From a phage, in the sequence record PZ445134.1: a DNA stretch of 64,000 bases; one strand, given 5' to 3'. Positions 9,687 to 39,789 of this stretch are shown here, piece by piece. Made by a program: the position numbers and the translations under genes. Each line of letters opens with the position of its first letter. Position 1 is the stretch's first letter. The notes below the pieces were generated by a model. It saw nothing but the letters and a program-made list of their open reading frames with translations. It had not been told where the DNA came from and did no database searches.

Positions 9687-10787
9687 TTACGCTGTGAAGA
9701 TTTTATCCCACATCGCAACAACTGCATCTCGGTTATACTTCTTCCATACTGCTTCAGCACGTTTAACTCGAGCTTCGTATGTGTCAGTGAATTCTAATAC
9801 AGCTTTTGTGTAAAGCGCAACTACTTCTTTCTTAGGAGTAGAGGAATCAATTTCTACACGCACAGTATCTGGGTCGTATTCGAATGTCGCATGAGGATAA
9901 TCCTTAAAAACTAACTGGATTACAGGGACACCTTTAGAAATGGCTTCAATAGAACTATTCTCTACTGTACCTGTGTCAGGACACGTATTAATAAGTGCTT
10001 TAGCTGTTTTAAGACGTTCCATGATTTCACTGTGTGGAGCATCAATAATAACAGGATATTTAGCTGGTGGTGCCCATTTACTAGGACAGTATCCTGCACC
10101 GTTTTCGCCTAGTGCTTTAATCGCTTCAAGAGCAACATCGGCGCGACGCATTTTAGTGTCATAACGTTGTGCACTAATAATCAGATCAGTCGCCGGAAGA
10201 ACTTCAGGTTTCTCATTCAAACAAATAACCGGATAATCTTCGGCTTCAAACAACGGATTTGCTCGCCAATAATCATAATCAATTTTGTCAGTCAGAGCTG
10301 AAGTCATATGGCAATATTTACGTTCAAATTCACGGAAGGCTTTAGTAGGAGCATAACTCTTACCACCATTCTTATGAATTTGAATAGTCTGGTCCCAAAT
10401 TTGAACAATGCCACGAGATACCGGTTCAAATGGTGTTGCCATAAAATTCTTATGAACTTTAGAGAGACCTGCGTCTTTAATTGCCTGAACGGTTAGTTTA
10501 GTCGGTTCCATAGTAACAACAAAATCGTATTCATGGATGCCGGCTAGTTCAACAATCTTACGAGCCATAGTATAACTCATACCTAGACTGAATTTAGTCA
10601 GATGACCAACAGGATGGTGTGTAACTTTCCAGTCACCAAACGTGTCATTATCAAAGCCGATATAATCAATATCAGCACCAATAGAAACTAAATATTTCAA
10701 CACATTTAAATGTACTGCTTCAAGGCCACCTTGTACACGGTCAGGATTAAATGGGACTGCACGAGATGGGATAAACATAACTTTCAT
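9687..10787 (-). CDS. GT-B fold glycosyltransferase (candidate DNA hmC glycosyltransferase)
   Basis: 366 aa; C-terminal ...TVENSSIEAISKGVPVI... resembles the E-x7-E / LEAMA-G-PVV region of GT4-type GT-B enzymes; no counterpart at this locus in T4. Confidence 0.6.
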   Translation of the reverse strand: MKVMFIPSRAVPFNPDRVQGGLEAVHLNVLKYLVSIGADIDYIGFDNDTFGDWKVTHHPVGHLTKFSLGMSYTMARKIVELAGIHEYDFVVTMEPTKLTVQAIKDAGLSKVHKNFMATPFEPVSRGIVQIWDQTIQIHKNGGKSYAPTKAFREFERKYCHMTSALTDKIDYDYWRANPLFEAEDYPVICLNEKPEVLPATDLIISAQRYDTKMRRADVALEAIKALGENGAGYCPSKWAPPAKYPVIIDAPHSEIMERLKTAKALINTCPDTGTVENSSIEAISKGVPVIQLVFKDYPHATFEYDPDTVRVEIDSSTPKKEVVALYTKAVLEFTDTYEARVKRAEAVWKKYNRDAVVAMWDKIFTA

Positions 10788-21890: not shown

Positions 21891-22412
21891 TCAGTAACCA
21901 TTATCCTGGCGTTCAAAGTTGTGTTGGTTTTTCAAGTAGTAAAGTTTAAAGATTTCTTCAGCGGAAAGACCCAGACCTTGGAACATGTTCAGGACAAAGT
22001 GGAGGATATCAATCATCTCGAATTTAATTTCAAGCTGGTCTTCAGGAGACAGTTCATCGATACGACGATTTCGATATTCAGCGTGTTGCGCCTTCCACGG
22101 TTTCCATACAGAGCTAGCGGCTTTTTCACCATTGCTCATACCACCAAGTGAAGTCAGCAGTTCACGGAATTCATCATCAATATAATCTTTCTGATTACGC
22201 AGCCAATCAACAACATCGCCAGCAGTGGCTAATTCATCAGGATGTTTGTTATGTTCAGGCTTGTCATTTGCCAGACGAACCTGTAAAGATTTCTGCATAT
22301 CAAGCATTACCTGCAGAGGGTCTTTATCTTCGTGAATCAGAGCATTAAAATAAGCTTCTTCTGCTTTATCAACACCAGAAATAAGTTGTGAACATTCGTT
22401 AAAGTGTGCCAT
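21891..22412 (-). CDS. 56: dCTPase/dUTPase (MazG-like)
   Basis: ORF track 21891..22427; likely start at MAHFNEC...; length ~173 aa as T4 gp56; synteny soc-56-61. Confidence 0.75.
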   Translation of the reverse strand: MAHFNECSQLISGVDKAEEAYFNALIHEDKDPLQVMLDMQKSLQVRLANDKPEHNKHPDELATAGDVVDWLRNQKDYIDDEFRELLTSLGGMSNGEKAASSVWKPWKAQHAEYRNRRIDELSPEDQLEIKFEMIDILHFVLNMFQGLGLSAEEIFKLYYLKNQHNFERQDNGY

Positions 22413-25453: not shown

Positions 25454-25702
25454 TTATTCTTTTTCGCGAATAATAATTACTTGTTGAGGCTGCTGGGCAG
25501 ATTTCTTTTCGGCAACGATAGACCAAATTAAAGTTCCAATCCAACCAATCATCGTCCAGTTAAAGAGTAAAGATATAAAGAAGATTGCTGTTGTGCTTTT
25601 TGTGCCACGAATAAGTGCGATTACCCAAGGCAACATGTAAATGATGATTGAACCAATACCTGCGATTAAAACTGCTACTGAACTAGCTACGAATAATTCC
25701 AT
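25454..25702 (-). CDS. membrane protein (82 aa, two TM-like segments)
   Basis: ORF track; hydrophobic. Confidence 0.5.
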   Translation of the reverse strand: MELFVASSVAVLIAGIGSIIIYMLPWVIALIRGTKSTTAIFFISLLFNWTMIGWIGTLIWSIVAEKKSAQQPQQVIIIREKE

Positions 25703-28882: not shown

Positions 28883-29245
28883 TTAAAAGAATTTAAATTT
28901 TTTCTTGGTCCGTTCATTAAAAGCTTGTTGTACTTGCATTGTAACACATTTTTCAACATGTGGTGCAAGTTCTGCTTTTCTGTCCTGGTCAAGAACTGCA
29001 AAGTCCATTACGATTTTACCATCAACCCAGTCTAGTTTTGTAATATAGACTATATGATGAGAACCATCTTCAAGTGTAATCAGAATCTCTTGAATGACAT
29101 TTTCCATTGCTGAACGGATAATTTTAAGAGATTCATTAAACACTCGTTCTTTGCGAATGTCTTCCCCTTCCGAAGAAGGGGATTCATCAACGATTTCTAG
29201 ATTTAAATCATCGAGATTATTCATCGAAATCTTCCATTTCATCAA
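28883..29245 (-). CDS. hypothetical protein (120 aa), gene 40 position
   Basis: located between 41 and uvsX as T4 gene 40; not verified by sequence. Confidence 0.4.
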   Translation of the reverse strand: MMKWKISMNNLDDLNLEIVDESPSSEGEDIRKERVFNESLKIIRSAMENVIQEILITLEDGSHHIVYITKLDWVDGKIVMDFAVLDQDRKAELAPHVEKCVTMQVQQAFNERTKKKFKFF

Positions 29246-30389
29246 GGTCGTTTTCTATATCTGCTGCAGACGGAGCATCAGAAGTTTTAACCGGAACTTT
29301 AGTTGTTGCTTTGCAATTAATAAGGTCATTAACAGCATCATCAACTTCTTTAATAGAAGAGATAGCACCTAGTTTATATTTAGTTTCAATTGCATCTCGG
29401 AAAGGTTTGTGTTTAAACAACGGCCCCCAGAATTCTACACAATCAGTAGCTTTAGCACGCCATGATTTTTCTTCACGAATCATTTCGCCTGTTTCTTCGT
29501 CAAGGAATTCACGAGCATACCAACCAGCTTTAGGCTTAACTACAAAACCAATTTCAGTTGCCATTTCTAACAAGCCACTGAATGGGTCGATACCACCATC
29601 AAAATTAACAGTGATCGGGAAAGTAGATTTTTCTTTAACGGTGCGAGATTTTTCTGCTTTCAACGTGAAGTCATAACCGGTCAATTCTGTACCTTCTTTA
29701 ACCTGACGTTTAGAGATAAAAAATACCGTGTTGGCAGAATAAAGAATACCTGTACCACCACCCATAATCTCTTTAGGATACAATCCGCCAATTTCCATTG
29801 CTGTATGGTTAATTGCAACACATGGAATATCTTTAATAGTCAGATAAGGAGTCACAATGCGGAACAGAGATTTAAGTGCCTTAGCACGAGACATATCACC
29901 TACGACTTTCTCGTTCAATGCATCTTCAGTTTCTTTCTTAGATGCAGTATTACCGATTGAATCGATAAAGATAATAACTTTATCACCGCGTTCAATCGCG
30001 TCAAGCTGATTAGTCATATCAACTTTAAGTTGTTCGACAGATTGAATCGGAGTATGAACTACACGGTCTAAATCAACACCCATTGAACGAAAATAAGATT
30101 CTGAAGCACCAAATTCTGAATCATAGAACAAACAAATTGCATCTTTATATTTCTTCATATATGCTGCAACCATGGTCAGCCCAAACAACGTTTTAAAGTG
30201 TTTAGAAGGAGCAGCAAAAATAGTTAAGCCTGATTGCAACCCGGCATTCAGTGCACCACCTAATGCAATATTCAACATCGGAATACGAGTAGGGACTTCA
30301 TCACGATTATTAAACAGCTTAGACTTAGTCAAGTCTGCAGTCATTTTAGAAGTAGAAGCTTTAATCAGACGAGATTTTAAATCAGACAT
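29217..30389 (-). CDS. uvsX: UvsX recombinase (RecA-like)
   Basis: 390 aa (T4 391); synteny. Confidence 0.9.
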   Translation of the reverse strand: MSDLKSRLIKASTSKMTADLTKSKLFNNRDEVPTRIPMLNIALGGALNAGLQSGLTIFAAPSKHFKTLFGLTMVAAYMKKYKDAICLFYDSEFGASESYFRSMGVDLDRVVHTPIQSVEQLKVDMTNQLDAIERGDKVIIFIDSIGNTASKKETEDALNEKVVGDMSRAKALKSLFRIVTPYLTIKDIPCVAINHTAMEIGGLYPKEIMGGGTGILYSANTVFFISKRQVKEGTELTGYDFTLKAEKSRTVKEKSTFPITVNFDGGIDPFSGLLEMATEIGFVVKPKAGWYAREFLDEETGEMIREEKSWRAKATDCVEFWGPLFKHKPFRDAIETKYKLGAISSIKEVDDAVNDLINCKATTKVPVKTSDAPSAADIENDLDEMEDFDE

Positions 30390-30488
30390 TGTATTTTTCC
30401 ATAGGCATCATTATATTTTACTCATGTTTAAAAGATAAGACGATTATATACTAAGGGCTATACAGCATTTAAAACTTTAAACAGGCTC

Positions 30489-31037
30489 TTAACGAGCCCA
30501 TTTGATAATTTCTGTAATCAAATTATTACGTTCGCTTGCATTAAATCCTATAACTTTGTTAGCACCATCATGATTAAGTAATTGATACGTTTGGATTTTG
30601 TTATGAATTGCAAACTCTTCAAAATATGAAATGACTGTATTAAAACCGAATGAAGACAAAGTAATAAGGTCGTCTTCAAAACTTTCAGTCATTTCGTTAC
30701 GTGTTAAAATAATTGTGAACACATCATGGTTTTGGCAAAGACGAACATAATCCTGTTCATAAACGTCAAGAACCGAGTCCACATCTTGTCGAATACGTCC
30801 ATAAACCCAGTTACTAATATATCCACGGTCTAACAGATAAATCTTAGTAGGGTCTAAATAATTCAACATCGTTTCGAAACAGCCAACTTCATTTCGAGAT
30901 TTAACATCGAAACGTCCATCAACTGTTCGTTTAGGGAAATCAATCTTTACATATCTTTCACTAATTTCCATTATGTCATTAATGAAAGTTGTTTTACCAG
31001 CATTATCCGGGCCATCTACTAAAATAATTTTAGCCAT
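30489..31037 (-). CDS. P-loop nucleotide kinase-like protein (TMPK/dNK-like)
   Basis: 182 aa; Walker A GPDNAGKTT; LLDRGY resembles the DR(Y/H) motif of thymidylate/deoxynucleoside kinases. Confidence 0.55.
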   Translation of the reverse strand: MAKIILVDGPDNAGKTTFINDIMEISERYVKIDFPKRTVDGRFDVKSRNEVGCFETMLNYLDPTKIYLLDRGYISNWVYGRIRQDVDSVLDVYEQDYVRLCQNHDVFTIILTRNEMTESFEDDLITLSSFGFNTVISYFEEFAIHNKIQTYQLLNHDGANKVIGFNASERNNLITEIIKWAR

Positions 31038-31038
31038 T

Positions 31039-31938
31039 TTATTCCTCGATTACGACATCTTCATATTTAGGTATATTATACGGTGAAGAAATTAAAGCAT
31101 TAAAGTAGATGAACTCACCAAGACCTGGATGGAATACTTCTTCAGGATTTTCGAAATATTGAATCTTCGGTCTTCCTTTAAGAATTTGATAGTACTCAGT
31201 TTTAGTTGGTTTAAAAATTCGAATCAGCGCTTCTTCAGGATACTTATTTCTGTCGAAGCTATTATTTGGATCGGTTATATAAAGCGGTTGACCTAATTGA
31301 ATTGCACATTCAACCACTTGTTCAAAACGATAACACGGGTCACTAATTCGAAATGGATGAAAAATACCATCTAGATGAATAGGAGCCAAATCACCTACAA
31401 GACGCTGCATGATGGAAGGACGTATAACTTTCTGGGTTACGATAATCTTATTACCATCTGCACCAGCGTTAACCAGCACTTCTTTTTGACGTTCATTCAA
31501 CACAGTAGTTTGAAGTGAACGATTAACCGACAACATGTCGGTTTTTAAGAATTCGTCAATGTAAAAACGTGGTTTATTAGGGTCTGCAGTGATATTGAAA
31601 TTGAATTCTACATCAAAAGCGCCGTCATATCCAGTGATATCTGTGATTAGAAAATCACAATCATAATAAGAAATTAATGAATCAACCACAAATTCATTTT
31701 CAGACCAGAAATATTTACGAGTGTTATACGCGTTATCTTTATACCATAATGGAACAAACTTAAATTCTGGGAAAAGACGTTCGCATTCTTTAATATCAGA
31801 TGCATTACGTGGATATGTAATCACATCACCCGGATTAGCACGGTGCAAATGAAGTTGGAAGTTGCCATCCTTAAGGATAGCATACTGTCCAGTTTCATAA
31901 GACCGCATACTCAAGATAGGTACGCGGAAAATAGCCAT
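31039..31938 (-). CDS. hypothetical protein (299 aa) at the locus where T4 has beta-glucosyltransferase
   Basis: ORF track; tight spacing with flanking kinase and gene 42; no recognisable motif. Confidence 0.5.
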   Translation of the reverse strand: MAIFRVPILSMRSYETGQYAILKDGNFQLHLHRANPGDVITYPRNASDIKECERLFPEFKFVPLWYKDNAYNTRKYFWSENEFVVDSLISYYDCDFLITDITGYDGAFDVEFNFNITADPNKPRFYIDEFLKTDMLSVNRSLQTTVLNERQKEVLVNAGADGNKIIVTQKVIRPSIMQRLVGDLAPIHLDGIFHPFRISDPCYRFEQVVECAIQLGQPLYITDPNNSFDRNKYPEEALIRIFKPTKTEYYQILKGRPKIQYFENPEEVFHPGLGEFIYFNALISSPYNIPKYEDVVIEE

Positions 31939-32654
31939 TAGTCAAGGAATCCTTTAACATAATCAAAATCACGTTCAAACACATGGGCACTTACCATGGT
32001 ATGAGTATAATCACCAACTTCTACACCACATTCGTTAGCTATATAATGAAGTAATTTTCCTTGGAGATAAAAATCCAACTGCATAACAACAGCACAGTTC
32101 TGAGAACGCATATGACAGTGGGTATAAAGCTTACCATCACGAATATAATAAGTCACTGAGTCAGTACATGGATATTCAAGTGTTTCGTCTGAATCAAGCA
32201 AAGCCTGATCAGAACTTTCTAGAATTTGGAACACAACTCTTCGAGAGTTAGGTTTTTCTTTAAGTTCTTTTAGAAGAGTTGGTAACTGGGCCGCAATTCG
32301 TGGACCGTAGAAAGTGTTGAAGTTTGCAGGCAAAGCATCTGATTTAGGTTTAGAAATAAATTTAGCGACGTTAGGATATGCCTTAAATGCTTCTTCTGCA
32401 TCAGTACCACCAGAAATCATAAATTTCCAGAAATCTTCAGCATATTCATAAGAGATGCGATTAATACGTGGGTCGGTCATTTTGAATGATGAAGGGGTAT
32501 CAACAACTACTGTCATAGACCCAATTTCATTACAACGTCCAATACGAGAATCAGTAACGAATTCCGGGTTTTCTAAAATTTCACGATTGACAGCTTTAAA
32601 TGCGGATTGAAAATCTGCGGCTTTAATATATTTCATTGTGTTATGTTTTCCCAT
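31938..32654 (-). CDS. 42: dCMP hydroxymethylase-like (thymidylate synthase fold)
   Basis: 238 aa; YPCTDSV...HCHMRSQN resembles the T4 gp42 catalytic Cys region (FMCTNTV...MRSND); synteny. Confidence 0.7.
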   Translation of the reverse strand: MGKHNTMKYIKAADFQSAFKAVNREILENPEFVTDSRIGRCNEIGSMTVVVDTPSSFKMTDPRINRISYEYAEDFWKFMISGGTDAEEAFKAYPNVAKFISKPKSDALPANFNTFYGPRIAAQLPTLLKELKEKPNSRRVVFQILESSDQALLDSDETLEYPCTDSVTYYIRDGKLYTHCHMRSQNCAVVMQLDFYLQGKLLHYIANECGVEVGDYTHTMVSAHVFERDFDYVKGFLD

Positions 32655-32787
32655 GTTTACCTCAATACAGTTATTATATACTCAATTCATAAAGCTTATT
32701 TGAATTTCTTAGCGATGTTGATATAACGTAGAGCTTCGGCATCGATACTTCCAAGGACGCTATGAAGGAACGCGTCGACATAGTATT

Positions 32788-32937
32788 CTAGTTGAACAGG
32801 TTCTCTTTAATCACTTTAGCCGCTTTAGTTTCAAACAGGCCCATAAGGGCCTTTTTAAGAATTTGTTCGTTGTTGTTAATTTTAATAGTCAAAATCTCTT
32901 CGTTAAGTTGGTGGTTAAAAGTTTTTCTAGAAATCAT
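32788..32937 (-). CDS. small ORF (~49 aa) translationally coupled to the upstream Cys-rich protein
   Basis: ATG overlaps upstream stop (GAATGATT); below ORF-track cutoff. Confidence 0.3.
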   Translation of the reverse strand: MISRKTFNHQLNEEILTIKINNNEQILKKALMGLFETKAAKVIKENLFN

Positions 32938-34094
32938 TCTGGGTACCTCAAAGCGTCATCAGAGTTAGTTATATCAATAATAGATATAGAGTTTTCCGAT
33001 AACCCATTTTTAGATAACTGACGTTTATAATATCTTTCACAATATGTACACGTCGTCCCACAGATTTCATTAGCACAATCGAAATCTGGATGTTTGAACC
33101 ACCTTTTTTCTAAAAAGCCATCTAACAAAGAGGTTTCAATATTTACCGTATGTGAAAACTCAGTCTCATTTTCAAGAGTGAAAATGGTCTCTAAAGGCTT
33201 CCACAATTCCAACAAATTACCTTCAAATTTTTCAGAAGCATAAGCTTCAAGAACTTTCAAAATGTAGTCTGTGCTACCTGTACGTCCTGAAACTTTGAAT
33301 TGAGTGATACCAATATCATTATAAAGTTTCAAATCTTGAGGACGAACAAAACGAGTTCTCAACCAGTTAAATGGATCTGTATCACGAGCTTTAATACAGT
33401 GCTGCATTGGATATCCATTTAAGGATTTGGCATCATCTACTGTAACATCAGTGCTATGGAAAATATAGCAAGAGTCACGATAACTACAATGTGTTGTATA
33501 CCCTTTACCAGCATTAGAACAGAACTCATTTACAAGAACTTCAAATATTATATTGTTCTTATTACAAAACTCTGCTGCACGCTTCAGGAAAGAAACTGAA
33601 CGGTTCTTATGAATTCCACAGCAGACCTTTTTGATATTATATTGGTCATGCAAGTATTTGATTTGAGTTACAGCATCGACATGTAGAATTGTTGAAACTT
33701 CAATCTCAATGTCTTTATTGACTTCACGAACAATTTCCATAACAACAGGGTTAGCGATAGTAATACGCCAAACGCCTATTGACCAAAGATACTGAACATA
33801 ATCCTGAATAGCTTTCTTCTTCCACTCAACTAGTTCTCTTTTTGAACCAGGATTTATCGTGTTGAGTGTACAGTTAAAGCAAATACCTAATTCGTTACAA
33901 CGTTTAACGTAATCTTCTAACATCTTTTTGTCAACGTCAGGAAGCCTAAAATCAGGTCTGGCTGCTACAAAAGCCATTTCTCTTGTAGAGCCGTATACTT
34001 CGTTTATCAAGCTATTAGGATAAGTTTTATTGAGCTCTACGATTTTATCAAGAAGAGCTAAATCAAAATTCGTTCCGATTTTAAAGGTATTCAT
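32934..34094 (-). CDS. Cys-rich protein of unknown function (386 aa)
   Basis: multiple Cys clusters including C-terminal C-x4-C-x3-C-x2-C (DCANEICGTTCTYC); first gene of the block inserted between 42 and 43. Confidence 0.5.
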   Translation of the reverse strand: MNTFKIGTNFDLALLDKIVELNKTYPNSLINEVYGSTREMAFVAARPDFRLPDVDKKMLEDYVKRCNELGICFNCTLNTINPGSKRELVEWKKKAIQDYVQYLWSIGVWRITIANPVVMEIVREVNKDIEIEVSTILHVDAVTQIKYLHDQYNIKKVCCGIHKNRSVSFLKRAAEFCNKNNIIFEVLVNEFCSNAGKGYTTHCSYRDSCYIFHSTDVTVDDAKSLNGYPMQHCIKARDTDPFNWLRTRFVRPQDLKLYNDIGITQFKVSGRTGSTDYILKVLEAYASEKFEGNLLELWKPLETIFTLENETEFSHTVNIETSLLDGFLEKRWFKHPDFDCANEICGTTCTYCERYYKRQLSKNGLSENSISIIDITNSDDALRYPE

Positions 34095-34148
34095 TTTTGC
34101 ATCTCGCGTTAATTGTTGCGATGGTTTTTGCAGGTCTTACTTAAATTA

Positions 34149-34550
34149 TTATAGATTCGGTTTATATGATTTAAATGTTTCGAATTCGCCTTTATTCATA
34201 AGAGCTTTGAATTCGTCAGGACGCATAGCTTTGTCGTCGATAATCCAATCATATACTGGTTTATGTGTTAGCAAATTATGGTACTTCAATCCAATGTTTG
34301 CCAAGTTCTGAATCAGACTTGGGAGAATGTCAATTGCTATACGACCAGGACCGACTGACTTCATACCACGAGCAGTGTAAAGCGTTATGGTATGCCCTGC
34401 ATCATACAGGGCATTAATGGCAGACACCATTTCGACGTCTGGTTTGAAGTTCACGTAATCACGATTGTTATTCCACTCTGTTATACAATCATCGACATCA
34501 AAACAAAGATTAAGCATGTTTTCTACACGGTGCATTAGATTCGTTCCCAT
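34149..34550 (-). CDS. HAD-superfamily phosphatase (sugar-phosphate phosphatase-like)
   Basis: 133 aa; motif I FDVDDCIT, motif II TLYTARG, motif IV YDWIIDDK. Confidence 0.6.
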   Translation of the reverse strand: MGTNLMHRVENMLNLCFDVDDCITEWNNNRDYVNFKPDVEMVSAINALYDAGHTITLYTARGMKSVGPGRIAIDILPSLIQNLANIGLKYHNLLTHKPVYDWIIDDKAMRPDEFKALMNKGEFETFKSYKPNL

Positions 34551-36220
34551 TGATGAGTGATATCGCCACCGATTGGACGATAGGAAACACCAGTTTCTTT
34601 ATCAGTTAGTACCCATTTACCAGGATTTTTTGTAATCAGAGTAGCCGTTACAGGTTCTGCTACGTCATAACTAATAGAGCCGTCCTGAAGTACACGGCCC
34701 ATGTTACGTAATTGCTTAGTCAGAAGTTCCATACCTTTATAATATGCGGCTACCGCTTTAAGTGGATTATTCTTGAAATAACCACCTAATGCAATCCAGA
34801 TAATTGCCACTGCCAAATGATGATACTCGTTAAACGAACTCATCTTTCCATATTTGTAAACTAATGGATTGATGTTAATAGTCACATTACAAGTTGTTTC
34901 ATCAATAGTAAACTGTCCCCAGGTCGGATTAGCGTTGAATTCATCATACCCTGAAACAGCATAAAGCACTTTAGCTTCGTCATACAATTTTGGTCCGTAA
35001 ATCTTGGTTTCGCCAAAATATCCACGAGGGTCGATAAACTTGACTTCGCCGTTATCAGTAATCATAGTATTACTGAAGTTCGGGTCACCATGAATAACAG
35101 AGTACTGTCCCTGAGAACGGTTATGATAACGAATAAGGTGTTCTAAAGCTTGTTTCAACATTGGCTTCAGACGTCCGATCTTAGTGTAGTTCACATGTGT
35201 GATTTTACCAAATGAATCAATCAATGGTTGAATACTTTCACAACGATCAATAACTTTCGTATAGAATTCTTTAGTGAAATCACGACGAACAGTTTCAGGA
35301 CTTACAAAATAAGTGTCTGTGCTGAATTTCAGTGCGTCTAAAATTGCATCAACAATTTGTGGACGAGCAAGACTCGATTTGGATTTAATATATTCAAATG
35401 CCGGCTTACCTTTAATGCGTTCCATTTCAAAGTTATTTTCATTAACAGAAACTAACTGAGGAACTGAATCTGATTTCACTTTAAGATACCATGAAATCTC
35501 ATCTTTCTGAAGAGCTCGGCCCTGTTCGGTTAATGCGAATTTAGTTACAGTTTCTTCACCAATTTCAACGGCATTAAAACTACGATTAAGTTCACGAACT
35601 TCATGAGCTTTTTCAAGTTTAGGCATATCACCTAAATCAATTAGATTCATAAGCTCTGATTTATTGAATGCGCTGCCGTAAAGGAATTCTACGAAATCAC
35701 GTCCTTTGCAGTATTCATGAATTTCCTCATCAGTAGAACCCATATAGAATTCCCAGTCTTTGAACTGATAAATTCCTACAACATTACCACCTGTTGAACC
35801 TACGTTAGTGATATTTTCACCGTCGAAATTATATCGACATTCGTCGCCCTTAACATAGATTGCGTTAACATTCCAAGACCACGAACCAAAATCAGGAATA
35901 ATATCGCACCAGTTAACAATTACATTATGGCCGTCTAAATCTTTGTGTAATTTAGCAAGAGCATAAGCAGAACCGTACGCTTCATCAACTGTACGAATAG
36001 TCACATTGAACCCTTCTTGCTCACAATAAGCTCGAACAGTTTCAGCAAATTTTGAATGAACTACTACAATAATTTCATCTGCGCCAAGGTCAGAATAAAT
36101 TGTATACAAATTGCTCAGAATAGTGTCTTGTTTATAGTTAACAAGCACCTTAGGAATATGATGCGTTATTGGATACAAACGAGTTGCCAGTCCAGCACCA
36201 AGAATAACAGCTTTTTTCAT
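34535..36220 (-). CDS. bifunctional sugar-1-phosphate nucleotidyltransferase (RmlA-like) / sugar kinase (APH-like)
   Basis: 561 aa; N-terminus KKAVILGAGLATRLYPIT (G-x-G-x-R-L); C-terminal HGDPNFSNTMI ... FIDPRG kinase catalytic/DxG-like motifs. Confidence 0.7.
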   Translation of the reverse strand: MKKAVILGAGLATRLYPITHHIPKVLVNYKQDTILSNLYTIYSDLGADEIIVVVHSKFAETVRAYCEQEGFNVTIRTVDEAYGSAYALAKLHKDLDGHNVIVNWCDIIPDFGSWSWNVNAIYVKGDECRYNFDGENITNVGSTGGNVVGIYQFKDWEFYMGSTDEEIHEYCKGRDFVEFLYGSAFNKSELMNLIDLGDMPKLEKAHEVRELNRSFNAVEIGEETVTKFALTEQGRALQKDEISWYLKVKSDSVPQLVSVNENNFEMERIKGKPAFEYIKSKSSLARPQIVDAILDALKFSTDTYFVSPETVRRDFTKEFYTKVIDRCESIQPLIDSFGKITHVNYTKIGRLKPMLKQALEHLIRYHNRSQGQYSVIHGDPNFSNTMITDNGEVKFIDPRGYFGETKIYGPKLYDEAKVLYAVSGYDEFNANPTWGQFTIDETTCNVTININPLVYKYGKMSSFNEYHHLAVAIIWIALGGYFKNNPLKAVAAYYKGMELLTKQLRNMGRVLQDGSISYDVAEPVTATLITKNPGKWVLTDKETGVSYRPIGGDITHQWERI

Positions 36221-36401
36221 GTTGTGGTCCTCATTGGTAAGTAGGAGTATTGTACACTATTCTAGTTAAAGCATTCATACTTTGCTTGTAGTCCAATCAT
36301 AATCCATCCGATTATAAGAGTCGGAATCATTACTGGAGCCGTTAAGCTCCAGTAGATAGTCATGACAAGCATCAATAGTAAAAGTCCTATTGTTATTGCT
36401 T

Positions 36402-37037
36402 TCATTGTTCGCCTCGTAACATGGCACCTAGTGCACCGCCAGGGTGGAACTTAAGGAAGTCATTAGAGGTAAATCCACGTTCAGACGAAAGGTTGATAGC
36501 AAACGTATCGATAAGCGCTAACAACAATGTAGTGGACATAGTCGGAGCTAGAGAATTCTCATCAACCTCTACTGCGATGCCTGTACAGAACGTATAATCA
36601 AAAAGAGCTTCGTATTCTTGTGGAATGTCTGGGTTACAATGCAACAGAATCTGTTTGACGTTCGGACGAATCATTTTAAGATGCTTAGCCACGCCTATCA
36701 TTTCTTCAGTTTTACCGGAACGACTAATATGAATCAACACATCATTAGGCGCAATGAATCCTGCATCACCGTGAGAATAATGCCCAGTGTTCAAGTACAT
36801 ACTCGGGATACCGAGTGAAGCAAATGTCTCAGAAGCTTTAGTTGCAATATTAGCATTCTTACCAACACCTGTAATAATTACTCTGCTTTCATAATTACTA
36901 AGTCCCGGGCGTCGAAGAGTTTCTAGAATAGCATTATAACGAGCAGGGTTTTGACTAATTACTTTGGCCATAGCGGCCAAAGAAGAAGCTTGTTTTATGA
37001 TTGCGTCAATAGCGATAGTAATAGGAGTAGTTTTCAT
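36402..37037 (-). CDS. SIS-domain sugar-phosphate isomerase (KpsF/GutQ-like arabinose-5-phosphate isomerase type)
   Basis: 211 aa; GVGKNANIA and SRSGKTEE SIS motifs; C-terminal HPGGALG as in KdsD/GutQ. Confidence 0.7.
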   Translation of the reverse strand: MKTTPITIAIDAIIKQASSLAAMAKVISQNPARYNAILETLRRPGLSNYESRVIITGVGKNANIATKASETFASLGIPSMYLNTGHYSHGDAGFIAPNDVLIHISRSGKTEEMIGVAKHLKMIRPNVKQILLHCNPDIPQEYEALFDYTFCTGIAVEVDENSLAPTMSTTLLLALIDTFAINLSSERGFTSNDFLKFHPGGALGAMLRGEQ

Positions 37038-37077
37038 ATTTCTCTCATTTAATTAGTTTGCCGTCCATGACATTATA

Positions 37078-39789
37078 TCAAAAATCGAACATATCGAAAA
37101 GAGATGCTTTCTTCTCGTAATCGAGTTTCGCTGCTGATGTGAATCCTTCAAGTGGTTTAATAAATGTCTTCTCAAGGAGAACAGTGTAGTCCATCCAATG
37201 AAGTACGTCGTCTTTAATTAAATCTGTGATTTCAGTACCGGAAGGCCATGCGATACATTTATCACCGAATGGGTTTCCTTCACGTAAAGGCAGAACATAT
37301 ACTTTTTCACCTTCTACAACTTGCGGTGCATCGATATTACCTTTGATAGCACGGTTATACGTCAGAATTCCACGAATATGGAATGGGCATTTGGGACCAG
37401 GGAATCCACCTACATCATATTTAGCAATGTTATTCGCAGAAGATACTGACGCGATGCTAATATAATTCAATTGACGGAATTCTTTTTCAAACTCTTTAAA
37501 ATATTCTTGTAATGATTCTTCACCTTCTTGAAGCATACGACGAATACATTCTTTAAGAGCTTTCTGTACTGCTTTAGGAGTCGAAGATTTCTGAGTCTCT
37601 AGACCCATGATTTTGAGTTTAGGCTCAGCGTAACGAGTACCTTCCATATCCCACACGTTTAATGCATAACGTTTCTTACCAGTCCAGAATCCACCAATAC
37701 CTTTAGAACCGAGTGGAGGCCCAGCGATAGCTTCTCGGTCCATGAACATTAAGTGTTGTTTATTGTTCATGTATTCACACATTTCACGGAAACCTCTATC
37801 AATAGCTGGTTCCATACGTTCACGTGCAAACTTATCTAAGAAGTCTACCCAATGGTTGGTATCACGGAATTTAGATTCACCAACCTTATCGATAATTTTA
37901 TCAGCAGATACGTAAATAGAGTCTGTATCACCATAAAGAACGAAAGCTTCACCTTCTGTGCCACAAACTTCATTCAGATATTCATTAACTTTACGTTCAA
38001 TCCACTGTAAAGCCATTTGCCCGAATGTTGTGATTGCAGTAGCATTACGCAAATCGTAATAACGGAACCAAACGTTGCCAAGTGCACCATAAAGTGAGTT
38101 GATAAGCAATTTACGGTTAATTTGGGCAGTCATACCTGCAACTTCAGTACGTTGAGCTCTAAACAACATTTCATTAAGAGATTTAGCAGACAACTTTTTA
38201 ATCTTTTCTTTAATCTCATCGCTGAAGTCGAAACGATAATCAACATCTAATGGTCCGTCAACAGAAAGATTAGGATTATGCAATGCCTCTTTAATTATTT
38301 CACCATTACGTTGAGCCGCAAGCATGTAACCTTTATGTTCTTTACGTTGATTAAAGACTTTAGTGATTTCAGTTGGAACAACACCGTCACGGTCTTTATA
38401 ATACATCATGCCGTTAGGAGAACAACTGTACACATCTGAAGGACGTTCAGCAACAGCGTTAATATAATCATGCAATGGAGCTACTTTAAACGTTCCTGCT
38501 ATTGTTTCTGGGCTAATATTCACTTGGCGAATAATACTTGGATACAGAGATGTAAGGTCGAAACTCATTACGTATTTGTATCGATTTGGAATAGGTTCCT
38601 TAACAAAAGCGCCGGGATAAGGTTGAACCGGGTGAGAACGACCTTGTGGAATCACCTTGTTCTGCTCTTTAAGGCTATTAAAAATAATAGCATCCCATGT
38701 TTTAATTGGGCTAAACACAGATTGAATCTGTATCTTAGCATAATAACCCATGTCCAAGCTCAAGTTAATGAACTGACGTTTAGCATCAATTTGCAATACA
38801 CGATACACGTCGATAATGTTATAAGAAATATATCGTTGGTGATTGCTTTCACGAAGCTTAGAAATAGGGCCGTCATATTTCAGTTTACCAACGTTCAATT
38901 CAAATTCTGAAATGTAATCCAGAGAATATGACGGTTGATTGGTAAAAGAGAATTTTTTGTAAAGGTCAATGTAATCAAGAACAGAGATACCGAACAATGT
39001 AATGATTTCACGAGAACCATACATGTTTTCGATAACTTTAACACGAGTTTTACGATGTGGTGATAAACGTTTCGCAGTAGATTCGCCAAAAATATTCTTG
39101 ATTCGGTTATACACATATGGAATATCAAATGACTCAACGTTCCATCCAGTCAAAATGACAGGAGTTTTCTGTTGCCAGAAGTTGAGATATTCCATCAACA
39201 ATTCTTTTTCGTTATCGAACGGCATATAAATGATTTTATCGATAATTTCGGATGGGACTTCATCACCGCCTTGTTCTTGAAGCTTAGCCGCAATTTCGAT
39301 AGACCATTCTTCCACATTCCCGTATGGAGAATTCAAAAGGTCAAATACGTAGAACCTGTCGTCAATTGAGTCATAATGAGTGATAGCATCAATCGGATGT
39401 TTTGCTTGTGACGGCTCAGGGAACCCGTCTGGAGATGTTACTTCGATGTCGAAGTTAGCCACACGAATTTTTGTATGGTCGTATTTGATTTCATAGTTAT
39501 AAGTGTCAGACAAATACGCCAATTTGAAATCGTCCATGCCAAGTGCTTCAAGTCCGATATCTTCCATGCGTTTAATCCATTGGGAGGCATCACGCATATT
39601 GGCGAACAACTTACGAGTACACGGCTTACCGTAGATATCGAAATATTTCGTAGCCTGACTTTCCGGACAATGAGCAAACAGTGATGGTTTATATTCTACT
39701 TCACGAGTACGTTCACGGCCGTTAGAATCGATGTAACGTTCAAAAATTGAATCACCAATCTGTTCAACCGTTAAGTAAAATTCTTTCAT
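37078..39789 (-). CDS. 43: DNA polymerase (family B)
   Basis: 903 aa; exo motif FDIEV, pol motifs KLLINSLYG and YGDTDS; N-terminus MKEFYLTVEQIGDSIFERYIDSNGRER reads like RB69-type gp43 as recalled. Confidence 0.95.
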   Translation of the reverse strand: MKEFYLTVEQIGDSIFERYIDSNGRERTREVEYKPSLFAHCPESQATKYFDIYGKPCTRKLFANMRDASQWIKRMEDIGLEALGMDDFKLAYLSDTYNYEIKYDHTKIRVANFDIEVTSPDGFPEPSQAKHPIDAITHYDSIDDRFYVFDLLNSPYGNVEEWSIEIAAKLQEQGGDEVPSEIIDKIIYMPFDNEKELLMEYLNFWQQKTPVILTGWNVESFDIPYVYNRIKNIFGESTAKRLSPHRKTRVKVIENMYGSREIITLFGISVLDYIDLYKKFSFTNQPSYSLDYISEFELNVGKLKYDGPISKLRESNHQRYISYNIIDVYRVLQIDAKRQFINLSLDMGYYAKIQIQSVFSPIKTWDAIIFNSLKEQNKVIPQGRSHPVQPYPGAFVKEPIPNRYKYVMSFDLTSLYPSIIRQVNISPETIAGTFKVAPLHDYINAVAERPSDVYSCSPNGMMYYKDRDGVVPTEITKVFNQRKEHKGYMLAAQRNGEIIKEALHNPNLSVDGPLDVDYRFDFSDEIKEKIKKLSAKSLNEMLFRAQRTEVAGMTAQINRKLLINSLYGALGNVWFRYYDLRNATAITTFGQMALQWIERKVNEYLNEVCGTEGEAFVLYGDTDSIYVSADKIIDKVGESKFRDTNHWVDFLDKFARERMEPAIDRGFREMCEYMNNKQHLMFMDREAIAGPPLGSKGIGGFWTGKKRYALNVWDMEGTRYAEPKLKIMGLETQKSSTPKAVQKALKECIRRMLQEGEESLQEYFKEFEKEFRQLNYISIASVSSANNIAKYDVGGFPGPKCPFHIRGILTYNRAIKGNIDAPQVVEGEKVYVLPLREGNPFGDKCIAWPSGTEITDLIKDDVLHWMDYTVLLEKTFIKPLEGFTSAAKLDYEKKASLFDMFDF

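Follow-up and report, generated by a model that had tools for sequence, protein, structure and literature searches.

The subject of this analysis is a gene cluster between uvsX and the DNA polymerase gene (gene 43) in a 64,000 nt stretch of the phage sequence record PZ445134.1 (this whole stretch is called the window below). We assign the window with high confidence, on sequence identity, to an RB69-like Mosigvirus, its uvsX–gene 43 region being the published 5-arabinosyl-5-hydroxycytosine cluster: the proteins compared with RB69 gp44–gp56 are 98–100% identical, and the DNA is 99.5% identical to that of Mosigvirus AV112/AV113. We are nearly as confident in our explanation of the region as a whole, in which the known arabinose pathway is accompanied by a proposed extra hydroxylase, a protein of the U32 family (RB69 gp50). 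The arabinose module as such is already known; it was flagged in 2018 and characterized in 2025–2026. For the U32 protein we put forward a role to which we give about an even chance: by analogy with its cellular relatives, it would be a [4Fe–4S], prephenate-dependent, O2-independent cytosine/pyrimidine C5 hydroxylase. Slightly more tentatively, U32, joined in most lineages by a chorismate mutase, could be the first viral, deoxynucleotide- or DNA-directed prephenate-dependent U32 hydroxylase, and would provide an O2-independent route to 5-hydroxypyrimidines. The arguments come from its family and fold, its invariant cysteines, RlhA as its best match, its linkage to chorismate mutase, its conservation, viral contigs that carry it without a thymidylate synthase (TS) homologue, the nucleotide-metabolism genes around it and its absence from Acinetobacter phages. 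Literature searches combining U32 with arabinose and phage, or prephenate with bacteriophage, returned nothing relevant, and this lead was not found in them; the full texts of He et al. 2026 and Mahler et al. 2025 lay outside the search, so it may have been proposed before.

The U32 protein of the cluster

The open reading frames (ORFs) of the window were listed and translated, and the proteins were searched against Pfam, NCBIfam/TIGR and PHROG profiles. A preliminary description of this DNA had read four genes of the cluster as a sugar-activation block. Three of them stand as such; the fourth, described as Cys-rich and given no role there, encodes the U32-family protein, which is probably not a sugar-activation enzyme and probably belongs to base hydroxylation. 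It scores 42.4 bits against Pfam Peptidase_U32 (cutoff 22.4 bits). Its AlphaFold2 model (pLDDT 92.3) retrieves the U32 protein 5D88 as the top Foldseek match in the PDB, followed by generic TIM barrels, and a PDB sequence search returned no match even at E = 1. The gene is annotated as a 'peptidase' or 'putative protease' throughout the databases (phrog_5757). Nine cysteines are invariant in 77 homologues (Cys158, Cys192, Cys203, Cys209, Cys233, Cys340, Cys345, Cys349 and Cys352). The last four form a C-terminal C340-X4-C345-X3-C349-X2-C352 motif (CX4CX3CX2C, FDCANEICGTTCTYC; window 33036–33080, residues 340–352) that is present in all 77 proteins and absent from Escherichia coli RlhA, TrhP, UbiU and UbiV. 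The motif, which resembles a cluster motif of the radical-SAM or ferredoxin type, may bind a second Fe–S cluster.

The characterized members of the family work in hydroxylation: RlhA is responsible for ho5C2501 in 23S rRNA, TrhP for ho5U34 in tRNA, and UbiU/UbiV act in anaerobic ubiquinone synthesis (PMC5727448, PMC6599085, PMC10990095). RlhA, TrhP and UbiU/V require prephenate and Fe–S clusters and are O2-independent (PMC5727448, PMC10990095), and for ubiquinone the role of prephenate as donor of the oxygen has been shown (PMC5727448, PMC6599085, PMC10990095). The phage protein shares with them the Pfam U32 core, conserved cysteines near the C-terminal end of the barrel, though with an ambiguous mapping, and a connection to prephenate supply, which takes the form of a genomic link to chorismate mutase in related phages and to DAHP-synthase/mutase fusions in viral contigs. 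In hhalign comparisons with the E. coli paralogues, RlhA is the best match (85.7% probability, E = 5.5e-6, 205 columns). The DUF3656 extension, described as unique to the RlhA subfamily (PMC5727448), was not found in the phage protein (386 aa, compared with 653 aa for RlhA), which is therefore not an RlhA orthologue. It differs further from the E. coli enzymes in its identity to them of only about 20%, in forming a separate subfamily, in the additional CX4CX3CX2C motif, in having no UbiT-like partner and in being virus-encoded. Its proposed substrate is a deoxynucleotide or DNA, and its activity is a prediction.

A chorismate mutase gene accompanies U32 in related genera

Outside the Mosigviruses, a chorismate mutase accompanies U32 in every T4-like lineage examined (five genera). 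In Serratia phage LC53, Enterobacter phage Entb_45, a Klebsiella phage and Shewanella phage Thanatos-2, the ORF starting on the U32 stop codon is a chorismate mutase of the Pfam CM_2 family, while in Proteus phage phiP4-3 the mutase gene lies about 370 bp downstream of U32, past two small ORFs. The phage mutases score 32.8–44.6 bits against CM_2 (cutoff 27 bits). In Thanatos-2 the U32–mutase pair occupies another place in the cluster, so that both genes move together. This type of mutase occurs in 56 phage records, all but one from phages of Enterobacterales or Shewanella hosts, that is U32-bearing taxa; the exception is an unannotated faecal 'Bacteriophage sp.'. Among the matches listed, the mutase gene is at most 600 bp from U32 in 15/15 accessions common to both lists.

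In Mosigviruses the slot holds an unrelated ORF of 79 aa (RB69 ORF049c) instead of a chorismate mutase. A 2 bp 'AG' insertion relative to RB69 ORF049c cuts it to 49 aa in the window (32788–32937, 32655–32787), and the same form occurs in AV112, which marks it as a variant of the lineage rather than an error. The 49 aa product matches phrog_8601 over positions 1–46 of the 79-residue profile. By visual inspection the 49 aa ORF, read together with its continuation in a second frame, resembled a decayed chorismate mutase, a reading that we rejected: neither the 49 aa nor the 79 aa form gives a CM_2 match even at E = 10, the score against a hidden Markov model of the phage mutases is −0.3, the ORF of the slot and the phage mutases fall into different families (phrog_8601 versus phrog_10027) and homology is undetectable. 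Having no mutase of their own, Mosigviruses would rely on the host PheA/TyrA for prephenate.

Distribution and conservation among phages

By tblastn, the U32 gene is found in 222 phage records, all with at least 81.6% identity, from phages of Escherichia, Klebsiella, Proteus, Yersinia, Serratia, Erwinia, Providencia and Shewanella. A gene resembling AfhE, the nucleotidyltransferase–kinase of the arabinose branch in phage HY126, occurs in 377 records (26–100% identity). By tblastn, U32 was detected in none of the records of Acinetobacter phages, 57 of which possess the arabinose module; Acinetobacter is a strict aerobe. In DLP3 and in the E. coli Dhakavirus VR5, the HAD phosphatase gene of the module (with or without a kinase gene) is followed directly by the TS gene and U32 is missing. 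A strict rule tying U32 to host aerobiosis was thus rejected: Acinetobacter phages have no U32, but neither do Dhakaviruses of E. coli, and the pattern stays suggestive.

In comparisons with five distant lineages, U32 shows the highest conservation in the region, with 79–87% identity. The corresponding ranges are 71–82% for the TS homologue, 66–80% for the DNA polymerase, 62–89% for the HAD protein and 44–72% for the nucleotidyltransferase–kinase.

U32 in other viral contigs

Beyond the T4-like phages, metagenomes contain a large clade of U32 homologues of about 360 aa (48–58% identity) in phage-like contexts centred on nucleotide metabolism. Their neighbours include a dCMP deaminase gene coupled to the U32 start, thymidylate-kinase-like kinases, UDG, NT5C and dNK, as well as dUTPase/DCD, a TAGT DNA glycosyltransferase and UDP-galactopyranose mutase. 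In IMG/VR, 31 non-T4-like U32 loci were found, falling into 23 clusters, and their 10 kb flanks were examined. An AfhE-like gene lies within these flanks at 16 of the 31 loci, a glycosyltransferase related to RB69 gp46:47 at 13, a chorismate-mutase domain at 12 (six of the 23 clusters) and a SIS gene at nine. A TS homologue is present at a single locus and has the ordinary ThyA signature (Leu143/Asp169/Asn177); no TS of the 5-hydroxy-dCMP synthase type lies within 10 kb of U32 at any of the 31. The commonest Pfam families among 128 immediate neighbours are Thymidylate_kin (8), DAHP_synth_1 (5), CM_2 (4) and SIS (4), and Thymidylat_synt is not among the 25 families listed for these neighbours.

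At four of the loci (L046:8411–9433, L048:7302–8357, L050:8332–9387 and L060:11079–12197) the mutase is fused to a DAHP synthase, with the synthase (KPRT motif) at the N-terminus and the mutase at the C-terminus, one or two genes away from U32. As predicted from these domains, the viruses carry the first and last steps toward prephenate. Six other loci (L038:8434–11086, L042, L043, L049, L051 and L064) present a triad of overlapping genes for a thymidylate-kinase-like kinase, a gp46:47-like glycosyltransferase and U32, with neither a TS homologue nor arabinose-activation genes within 10 kb. This gene content suggests that a different sugar donor is used on a base hydroxylated by U32. The triads mirror the TS–glycosyltransferase–kinase triad of the window, with U32 in the position of the hydroxylase. 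On an 86 kb metagenome contig (L004:8001–15428), U32 is flanked by genes for an NT5C deoxyribonucleotidase, a deoxynucleoside kinase, an NMN-transporter-family protein, a protein of the radical-SAM/SPASM type, another but divergent U32-like protein and a protein resembling nucleoside 2-deoxyribosyltransferases. This deoxynucleoside-centred cluster is possibly cellular.

Proposed role of U32 and its alternatives

In the mechanism that we propose, U32 would be a second hydroxylase, mechanistically unrelated to the TS-type enzyme, and would make the same 5-hydroxypyrimidine nucleotide when oxygen is absent, as in the gut, with prephenate replacing O2. In RB69-like phages it would back up the O2/flavin enzyme under anoxia, and in many uncultured phages, including jumbo phages with triads or SIS/AfhE/DAHPS–CM/U32 operons and no TS-type hydroxylase nearby, DNA glycosylation would depend on U32 as the sole hydroxylase. 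The phage chorismate mutase, sometimes with a DAHP synthase, would raise the supply of prephenate. The kinase genes often found beside U32 suggest an action at the mononucleotide level. There is a parallel in E. coli, where U32 enzymes each have an O2-dependent counterpart (UbiI/H/F for UbiU/V, TrhO for TrhP); in the phage, the TS homologue would play this part. The one hydroxylase demonstrated for the pathway requires O2, although the hosts of these phages are gut Enterobacterales; an anaerobic U32 route, if real, would account for continued modification under anoxia. A small soluble phage U32 acting on a mononucleotide could then become a tractable model for in vitro reconstitution, and its gene could serve as a genomic indicator of 5-hydroxypyrimidine-based hypermodification in the DNA of uncultured phages with no TS-type marker.

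Several observations weigh against a prephenate-dependent hydroxylase. The TS homologue alone suffices for 5-hydroxydeoxycytidine (5hodC) formation in aerobic E. coli (PMC13326640), and Dhakaviruses infecting E. coli possess the arabinose module without U32, which is thus dispensable on a facultatively anaerobic host. In the Mosigvirus lineage itself no chorismate mutase is recognizable, and the ORF in its slot is frameshifted in the window. When the U32 alignment was compared by hhalign with single-sequence templates, UbiU and TrhP reached probabilities of only 5% and 13%, RlhA alone giving a usable alignment, and the mapping of the four candidate cluster-ligand cysteines (Cys192, Cys203, Cys209 and Cys233) is ambiguous: Cys203/Cys209 align with Cys169/Cys176 of RlhA in hhalign, and Cys192/Cys209/Cys233 with Cys169/Cys176/Cys232 of UbiU in MAFFT. 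For the viral contigs, TS homologues may lie beyond the 10 kb flanks. No U32 hydroxylase has yet been reconstituted in vitro (PMC10990095). Finally, gp50 is labelled 'sugar or heterocycle reductase' in Table 1 of PMC13326640, its sole listing there and without discussion; the text of that paper mentions neither prephenate, chorismate and TrhP nor iron–sulfur. In the matching passages of a phage Tn-seq preprint (LC53, Bas46), we found no U32, peptidase, chorismate or gene-level cluster essentiality.

In the spirit of the Table 1 label, U32 might be a reductase or tailoring enzyme acting on the sugar or heterocycle of the arabinose branch, in which case the block would truly be a four-gene sugar pathway. 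Its gene does lie between those of the HAD phosphatase and the TS homologue within the cluster, AfhE-like and SIS genes co-occur with it in many viral contigs and the TIM-barrel fold is common among sugar enzymes; we nevertheless judge this reading unlikely. DLP3 and the Dhakaviruses carry the arabinose module without U32, and DLP3 DNA has been shown to be arabinosylated (PMC13326640). Conversely, six viral loci combine U32 with a kinase and a glycosyltransferase and have no sugar-activation genes, and the linkage to chorismate mutase and DAHP synthase has no rationale in sugar chemistry. We know of no characterized U32 member that is a sugar enzyme. It seems quite improbable to us that U32 and the mutase form a TrhP/RlhA-like RNA hydroxylase system tuning translation through phage or host tRNA or rRNA, unrelated to DNA modification. 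T4-like phages do encode tRNAs, and RlhA is the best paralogue match. RNAs are also the only known nucleic-acid substrates of U32 enzymes (PMC5727448, PMC6599085). Nonetheless, the phage protein does not have the DUF3656 extension, its gene is embedded and translationally coupled in DNA-modification operons, its linkage to dNMP kinases, dCMP deaminase, dUTPase, NT5C, DNA glycosyltransferases and TAGT is consistent, and TrhP, TrhO and RlhA are already encoded by the host. As for the collagenase-like peptidase that the database annotations and the Pfam family name would make of U32, we give it hardly any credence: the label is historical, the characterized members work in hydroxylation, and invariant cysteine clusters in contexts of prephenate supply and nucleotide metabolism are ill-suited to a protease.

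The arabinose branch

The three sugar-activation genes encode a single-domain SIS protein, a nucleotidyltransferase–kinase fusion and a small HAD-family protein. Profile searches upheld the families given in the preliminary description for all three, with weak matches for the kinase domain, and it had correctly read the motifs FDVDDCIT, TLYTARG and DWIIDDK of the HAD protein and HPGGALG of the SIS protein. The SIS protein scores 41.2 bits against Pfam SIS (cutoff 25 bits) and matches the KpsF/GutQ model TIGR00393 (E = 2e-32) and the KdsD model NF008141 (E = 1e-30), staying under the cutoffs of these full-length models because it is shorter. It is 99% identical to RB69 gp55 and, by BLASTP, 36% identical to the SIS domain of E. 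coli KdsD. Lys59, His88, Glu111, Glu152 and His193 (E. coli KdsD numbering), which we take to be the catalytic and substrate-binding residues of KdsD, are all five identical. The C-terminal tandem CBS domains are not present, the 211 aa protein ending right after HPGGALG, compared with 328 aa for KdsD. It can be compared with the single-domain variant of Bacteroides (PDB entry 3ETN; PMC13326640), and isomerization of ribulose-5-phosphate to arabinose-5-phosphate by gp55 is a prediction made in the same paper. The Klebsiella phage (L014) and Shewanella phage Thanatos-2 (L016) have AfhE-like, HAD, U32, chorismate mutase, TS and glycosyltransferase genes and no SIS isomerase; presumably these phages draw arabinose-5-phosphate from the host KdsD.

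The N-terminus of the fusion protein matches Pfam NTP_transferase (residues 3–99, 39.1 bits, cutoff 21.2 bits), NCBIfam sugar-1-phosphate nucleotidyltransferase models and, in the PDB, LicC (entry 1JYK, E = 2e-5). Residues 308–409 give sub-threshold Pfam matches to Fructosamin_kin, EcKL and RIO1 (16–17 bits), the sequence shows the kinase motifs VIHGDPNFSN and FIDPRG, and a structural match of this domain to APH (3HAM) has been reported (PMC13326640). The protein is 100% identical to its RB69 counterpart over the aligned part, and its length of 561 aa is that of the corrected RB69 ORF53_52c (PMC6024577). The HAD protein contains the DVDDC, TLYTARG, K and IIDDK motifs, matches TIGR01689 (E = 4e-13) and has been described as structurally similar to GmhB (PMC13326640). 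It is identical at 128/128 residues to PDB entry 9IQW, which we infer to be AfhF of phage HY126. Its annotations are misleading: 'phosphoheptose isomerase' in PHROG 1238 and RefSeq, 'capsule biosynthesis protein' in the PDB entry.

According to He et al. 2026, as summarized in PMC13326640, HY126 AfhE converts arabinose-5-phosphate to arabinose-1,5-bisphosphate, arabinose-1-phosphate arises when the HAD protein AfhF, in an Mg2+-dependent reaction, takes off one phosphate, and the N-terminal domain of AfhE forms UDP-arabinofuranose. In the window, the SIS isomerase would correspondingly convert host ribulose-5-phosphate to arabinose-5-phosphate, the kinase domain of the fusion would phosphorylate C1, the small HAD phosphatase would take off the 5-phosphate of the resulting arabinose-1,5-bisphosphate, and the nucleotidyltransferase domain would join arabinose-1-phosphate and UTP into UDP-arabinofuranose. 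The preliminary description had rightly proposed that the SIS, fusion and HAD enzymes lead from ribulose-5-phosphate to an NDP-arabinose for DNA glycosylation; its order of steps, which ran through a free pentose, gives way to the cited AfhE/AfhF biochemistry, and free arabinose is not an intermediate of the route. The module shows phages building their own nucleotide-sugar donor to hypermodify DNA and so evade restriction, CRISPR and glycosylase defences.

The bacterial ADP-heptose pathway, which consists of GmhA (SIS isomerase), HldE (kinase/nucleotidyltransferase) and GmhB (HAD bisphosphate phosphatase), follows the same logic: a SIS isomerase, an anomeric kinase producing a bisphosphate, a HAD phosphatase and a nucleotidyltransferase, with kinase and nucleotidyltransferase fused. 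Here, however, the substrate is a pentose (arabinose-5-phosphate) and not a heptose, the product is a UDP-furanose and it is used on DNA instead of lipopolysaccharide. Compared with HldE, the kinase domain resembles APH and choline kinases instead of ribokinase, and the two domains stand in the opposite order.

The modified base

In the DNA of RB69, Thomas et al. 2018 (PMC6024577) detected arabinose, reported it at the time as arabinosyl-5-hydroxymethylcytosine (ara-hmC) and flagged the gene 43–uvsX module, including ORF055c (the SIS protein) and ORF53_52c, as a likely source of UDP-arabinose. The base has since been established by nuclear magnetic resonance (NMR) and mass spectrometry (MS) as 5-hydroxycytosine to which arabinose is joined through an ether bond (Lee et al. 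2026, PMC13326640), and the ara-hmC assignment has been called erroneous (PMC13390438). The preliminary description had pointed to ara-hmC in RB69-type phages, taken 5-hydroxymethylcytosine (hmC) as the acceptor and the adjacent gp42 as its maker. The arabinose remains; the hydroxymethyl group does not, nor does that role for the neighbouring enzyme. In a MAFFT alignment with E. coli ThyA (ThyA numbering), the TS homologue of the window retains Cys146 and has the changes L143E, N177D and D169N, whereas T4 gp42 keeps Asp169. This triple change, in which D169N is the diagnostic one, is the signature of 5-hydroxy-dCMP synthases (PMC13326640). The protein is identical at 235/238 residues to PDB entries 9IQC/9IR2 and 99% identical to RB69 gp48, which binds flavin and makes 5-hydroxy-dCMP with oxygen taken from 18O2 (Lee et al. 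2026, PMC13326640). The correction from hmC to 5-hydroxycytosine matters when one predicts the defence systems and sequencing chemistries that are affected.

On the base side, the TS homologue would hydroxylate C5 of dCMP with flavin and O2, kinases would raise 5-hydroxy-dCMP to the triphosphate, the polymerase would incorporate it and two glycosyltransferases would add arabinose on the DNA. The gp45 kinase and the dCTPase are listed in Table 1 of PMC13326640. The arabinosyltransferase role of gp46:47 was assigned through structure comparison (PMC13326640), its orthologue in the window (31039–31938) giving no Pfam or PDB sequence match, and that of RB69 gp3 was assigned in PMC6024577 and PMC13326640. 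Sugar and base steps alike are published for RB69, DLP3 and HY126, and near-identity of the proteins argues for the same steps in the window. The preliminary description had held the enzymatic steps to be undemonstrated; they were reported in 2025–2026, and two proteins of the window are identical or nearly identical to those in PDB entries.

Its complete scheme, from arabinose-5-phosphate through arabinose and arabinose-1-phosphate to an NDP-arabinose that glycosylates hmC made by a gp42-type dCMP hydroxymethylase, relies on the same enzyme families as the published pathway. It agrees with the original report of ara-hmC (Thomas et al. 2018, PMC6024577), and the older wording 'A5P to Ara to Ara1P' persists in Table 1 of PMC13326640. 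Given the ether link seen by NMR and MS (PMC13326640, PMC13390438), the D169N change in an enzyme 99% identical to gp48, whose synthesis of 5-hydroxy-dCMP was shown with 18O2, and, in the biochemistry cited for AfhE/AfhF in PMC13326640, the passage through arabinose-1,5-bisphosphate, we regard this scheme as very improbable.

The glucosyl-hmC system of T4 (gp42, gp56, gp1 and the α- and β-glucosyltransferases) occupies the same uvsX–gene 43 neighbourhood and resembles that of the window: dCMP is modified by an enzyme of the TS family, there is a dCTPase and DNA receives the sugar after replication. The base nevertheless differs (5-hydroxy and not 5-hydroxymethyl, with D169N and flavin/O2 in place of folate), as does the sugar donor, which is made by the phage here and taken from the host as UDP-glucose in T4.

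Organization of the locus

From the DNA polymerase gene to uvsX, all genes are on the minus strand (Table 1). The ORF list bears out the description of four co-oriented and tightly packed genes, and the block also holds a fifth ORF that had been overlooked (47 aa, 36262–36405). The SIS gene and this ORF overlap by 4 nt, the nucleotidyltransferase–kinase and HAD genes overlap, and U32 and the 49 aa ORF share a 4 nt ATGA overlap. The likely true start of the HAD gene is 34535 (128 aa), matching the annotation in RB69 and AV112. Gene order and content are those of RB69 gp45–gp55, which with the HY126 Afh cluster and DLP3 gp76–83 represents the system of which the window is a further member, and differences from RB69 are at strain level only, such as the 2 bp insertion that shortens the ORF049 homologue. 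A database search found the block in 190 phage records, with full length in 153; it is therefore no chance feature. Its GC content (0.35–0.41) is the same as that of the flanks.

Table 1. Genes of the uvsX–gene 43 region and two associated genes elsewhere in the window (window coordinates)
Feature	Position	Strand	Remarks
DNA polymerase (gene 43)	37078-39789	-	ORF list
D-Arabinose-5-phosphate isomerase, single SIS domain, RB69 gp55 orthologue	36402-37037	-	211 aa
47 aa ORF with two hydrophobic segments, position of RB69p054	36262-36405	-	phrog_3610, E = 4.5e-27
Nucleotidyltransferase–kinase fusion, RB69 gp52:53, HY126 AfhE counterpart	34535-36220	-	561 aa, uninterrupted
Small HAD-family phosphatase, RB69 gp51, AfhF	34149-34535	-	128 aa; ORF could extend to 34550 (133 aa)
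U32-family Fe–S-type protein, RB69 gp50	32934-34094	-	386 aa, 14 Cys
49 aa ORF in the chorismate mutase slot of related genera	32788-32937	-	Start overlaps U32 stop codon
5-Hydroxy-dCMP synthase, TS homologue ('gene 42'), RB69 gp48	31938-32654	-	235/238 identical to PDB 9IQC/9IR2
Putative DNA arabinosyltransferase 1, RB69 gp46:47	31039-31938	-	299 aa; 98% identical to RB69; phrog_3891
Thymidylate-kinase-like P-loop nucleotide kinase, RB69 gp45	30489-31037	-	phrog_761, E = 7e-45; 98% identical to gp45
uvsX	29217-30389	-	ORF list
dCTPase (gp56 orthologue): dCMP supply, dCTP exclusion	21894-22412	-	tblastn, 97.1% identity, 173 aa
Second DNA arabinosyltransferase, RB69 gp3 orthologue	9690-10787	-	tblastn, 98.6% identity, 366 aa

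A scan of 30300–37300 for promoters and terminators was uninformative, with 23 promoter-like sites for 26.7 expected and five terminator-like sites for 3.5 expected. In T4 only imm and imm.1 separate genes 42 and 43, as the preliminary description had stated, and the arabinose module sits where T4 has imm. The imm gene of the window lies at 25457–25702, about 7 kb from its T4 place, and is 97.6% identical to RB69 imm (tblastn). Copies of the 47 aa ORF with 62–64% identity occupy the same slot in Serratia phage LC53 and Enterobacter phage Entb_45, and the relatives that infect Klebsiella, Proteus and Shewanella do not have it; in RB69 a shorter version of it is annotated as 'similar to T4 42-imm intercistronic region'. 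Between its HAD and U32 genes LC53 carries a putative homing endonuclease gene (L001:5352–5990), and another such gene adjoins uvsX in Proteus phage phiP4-3. Mobile endonucleases have a hotspot here, as segA illustrates in T4.

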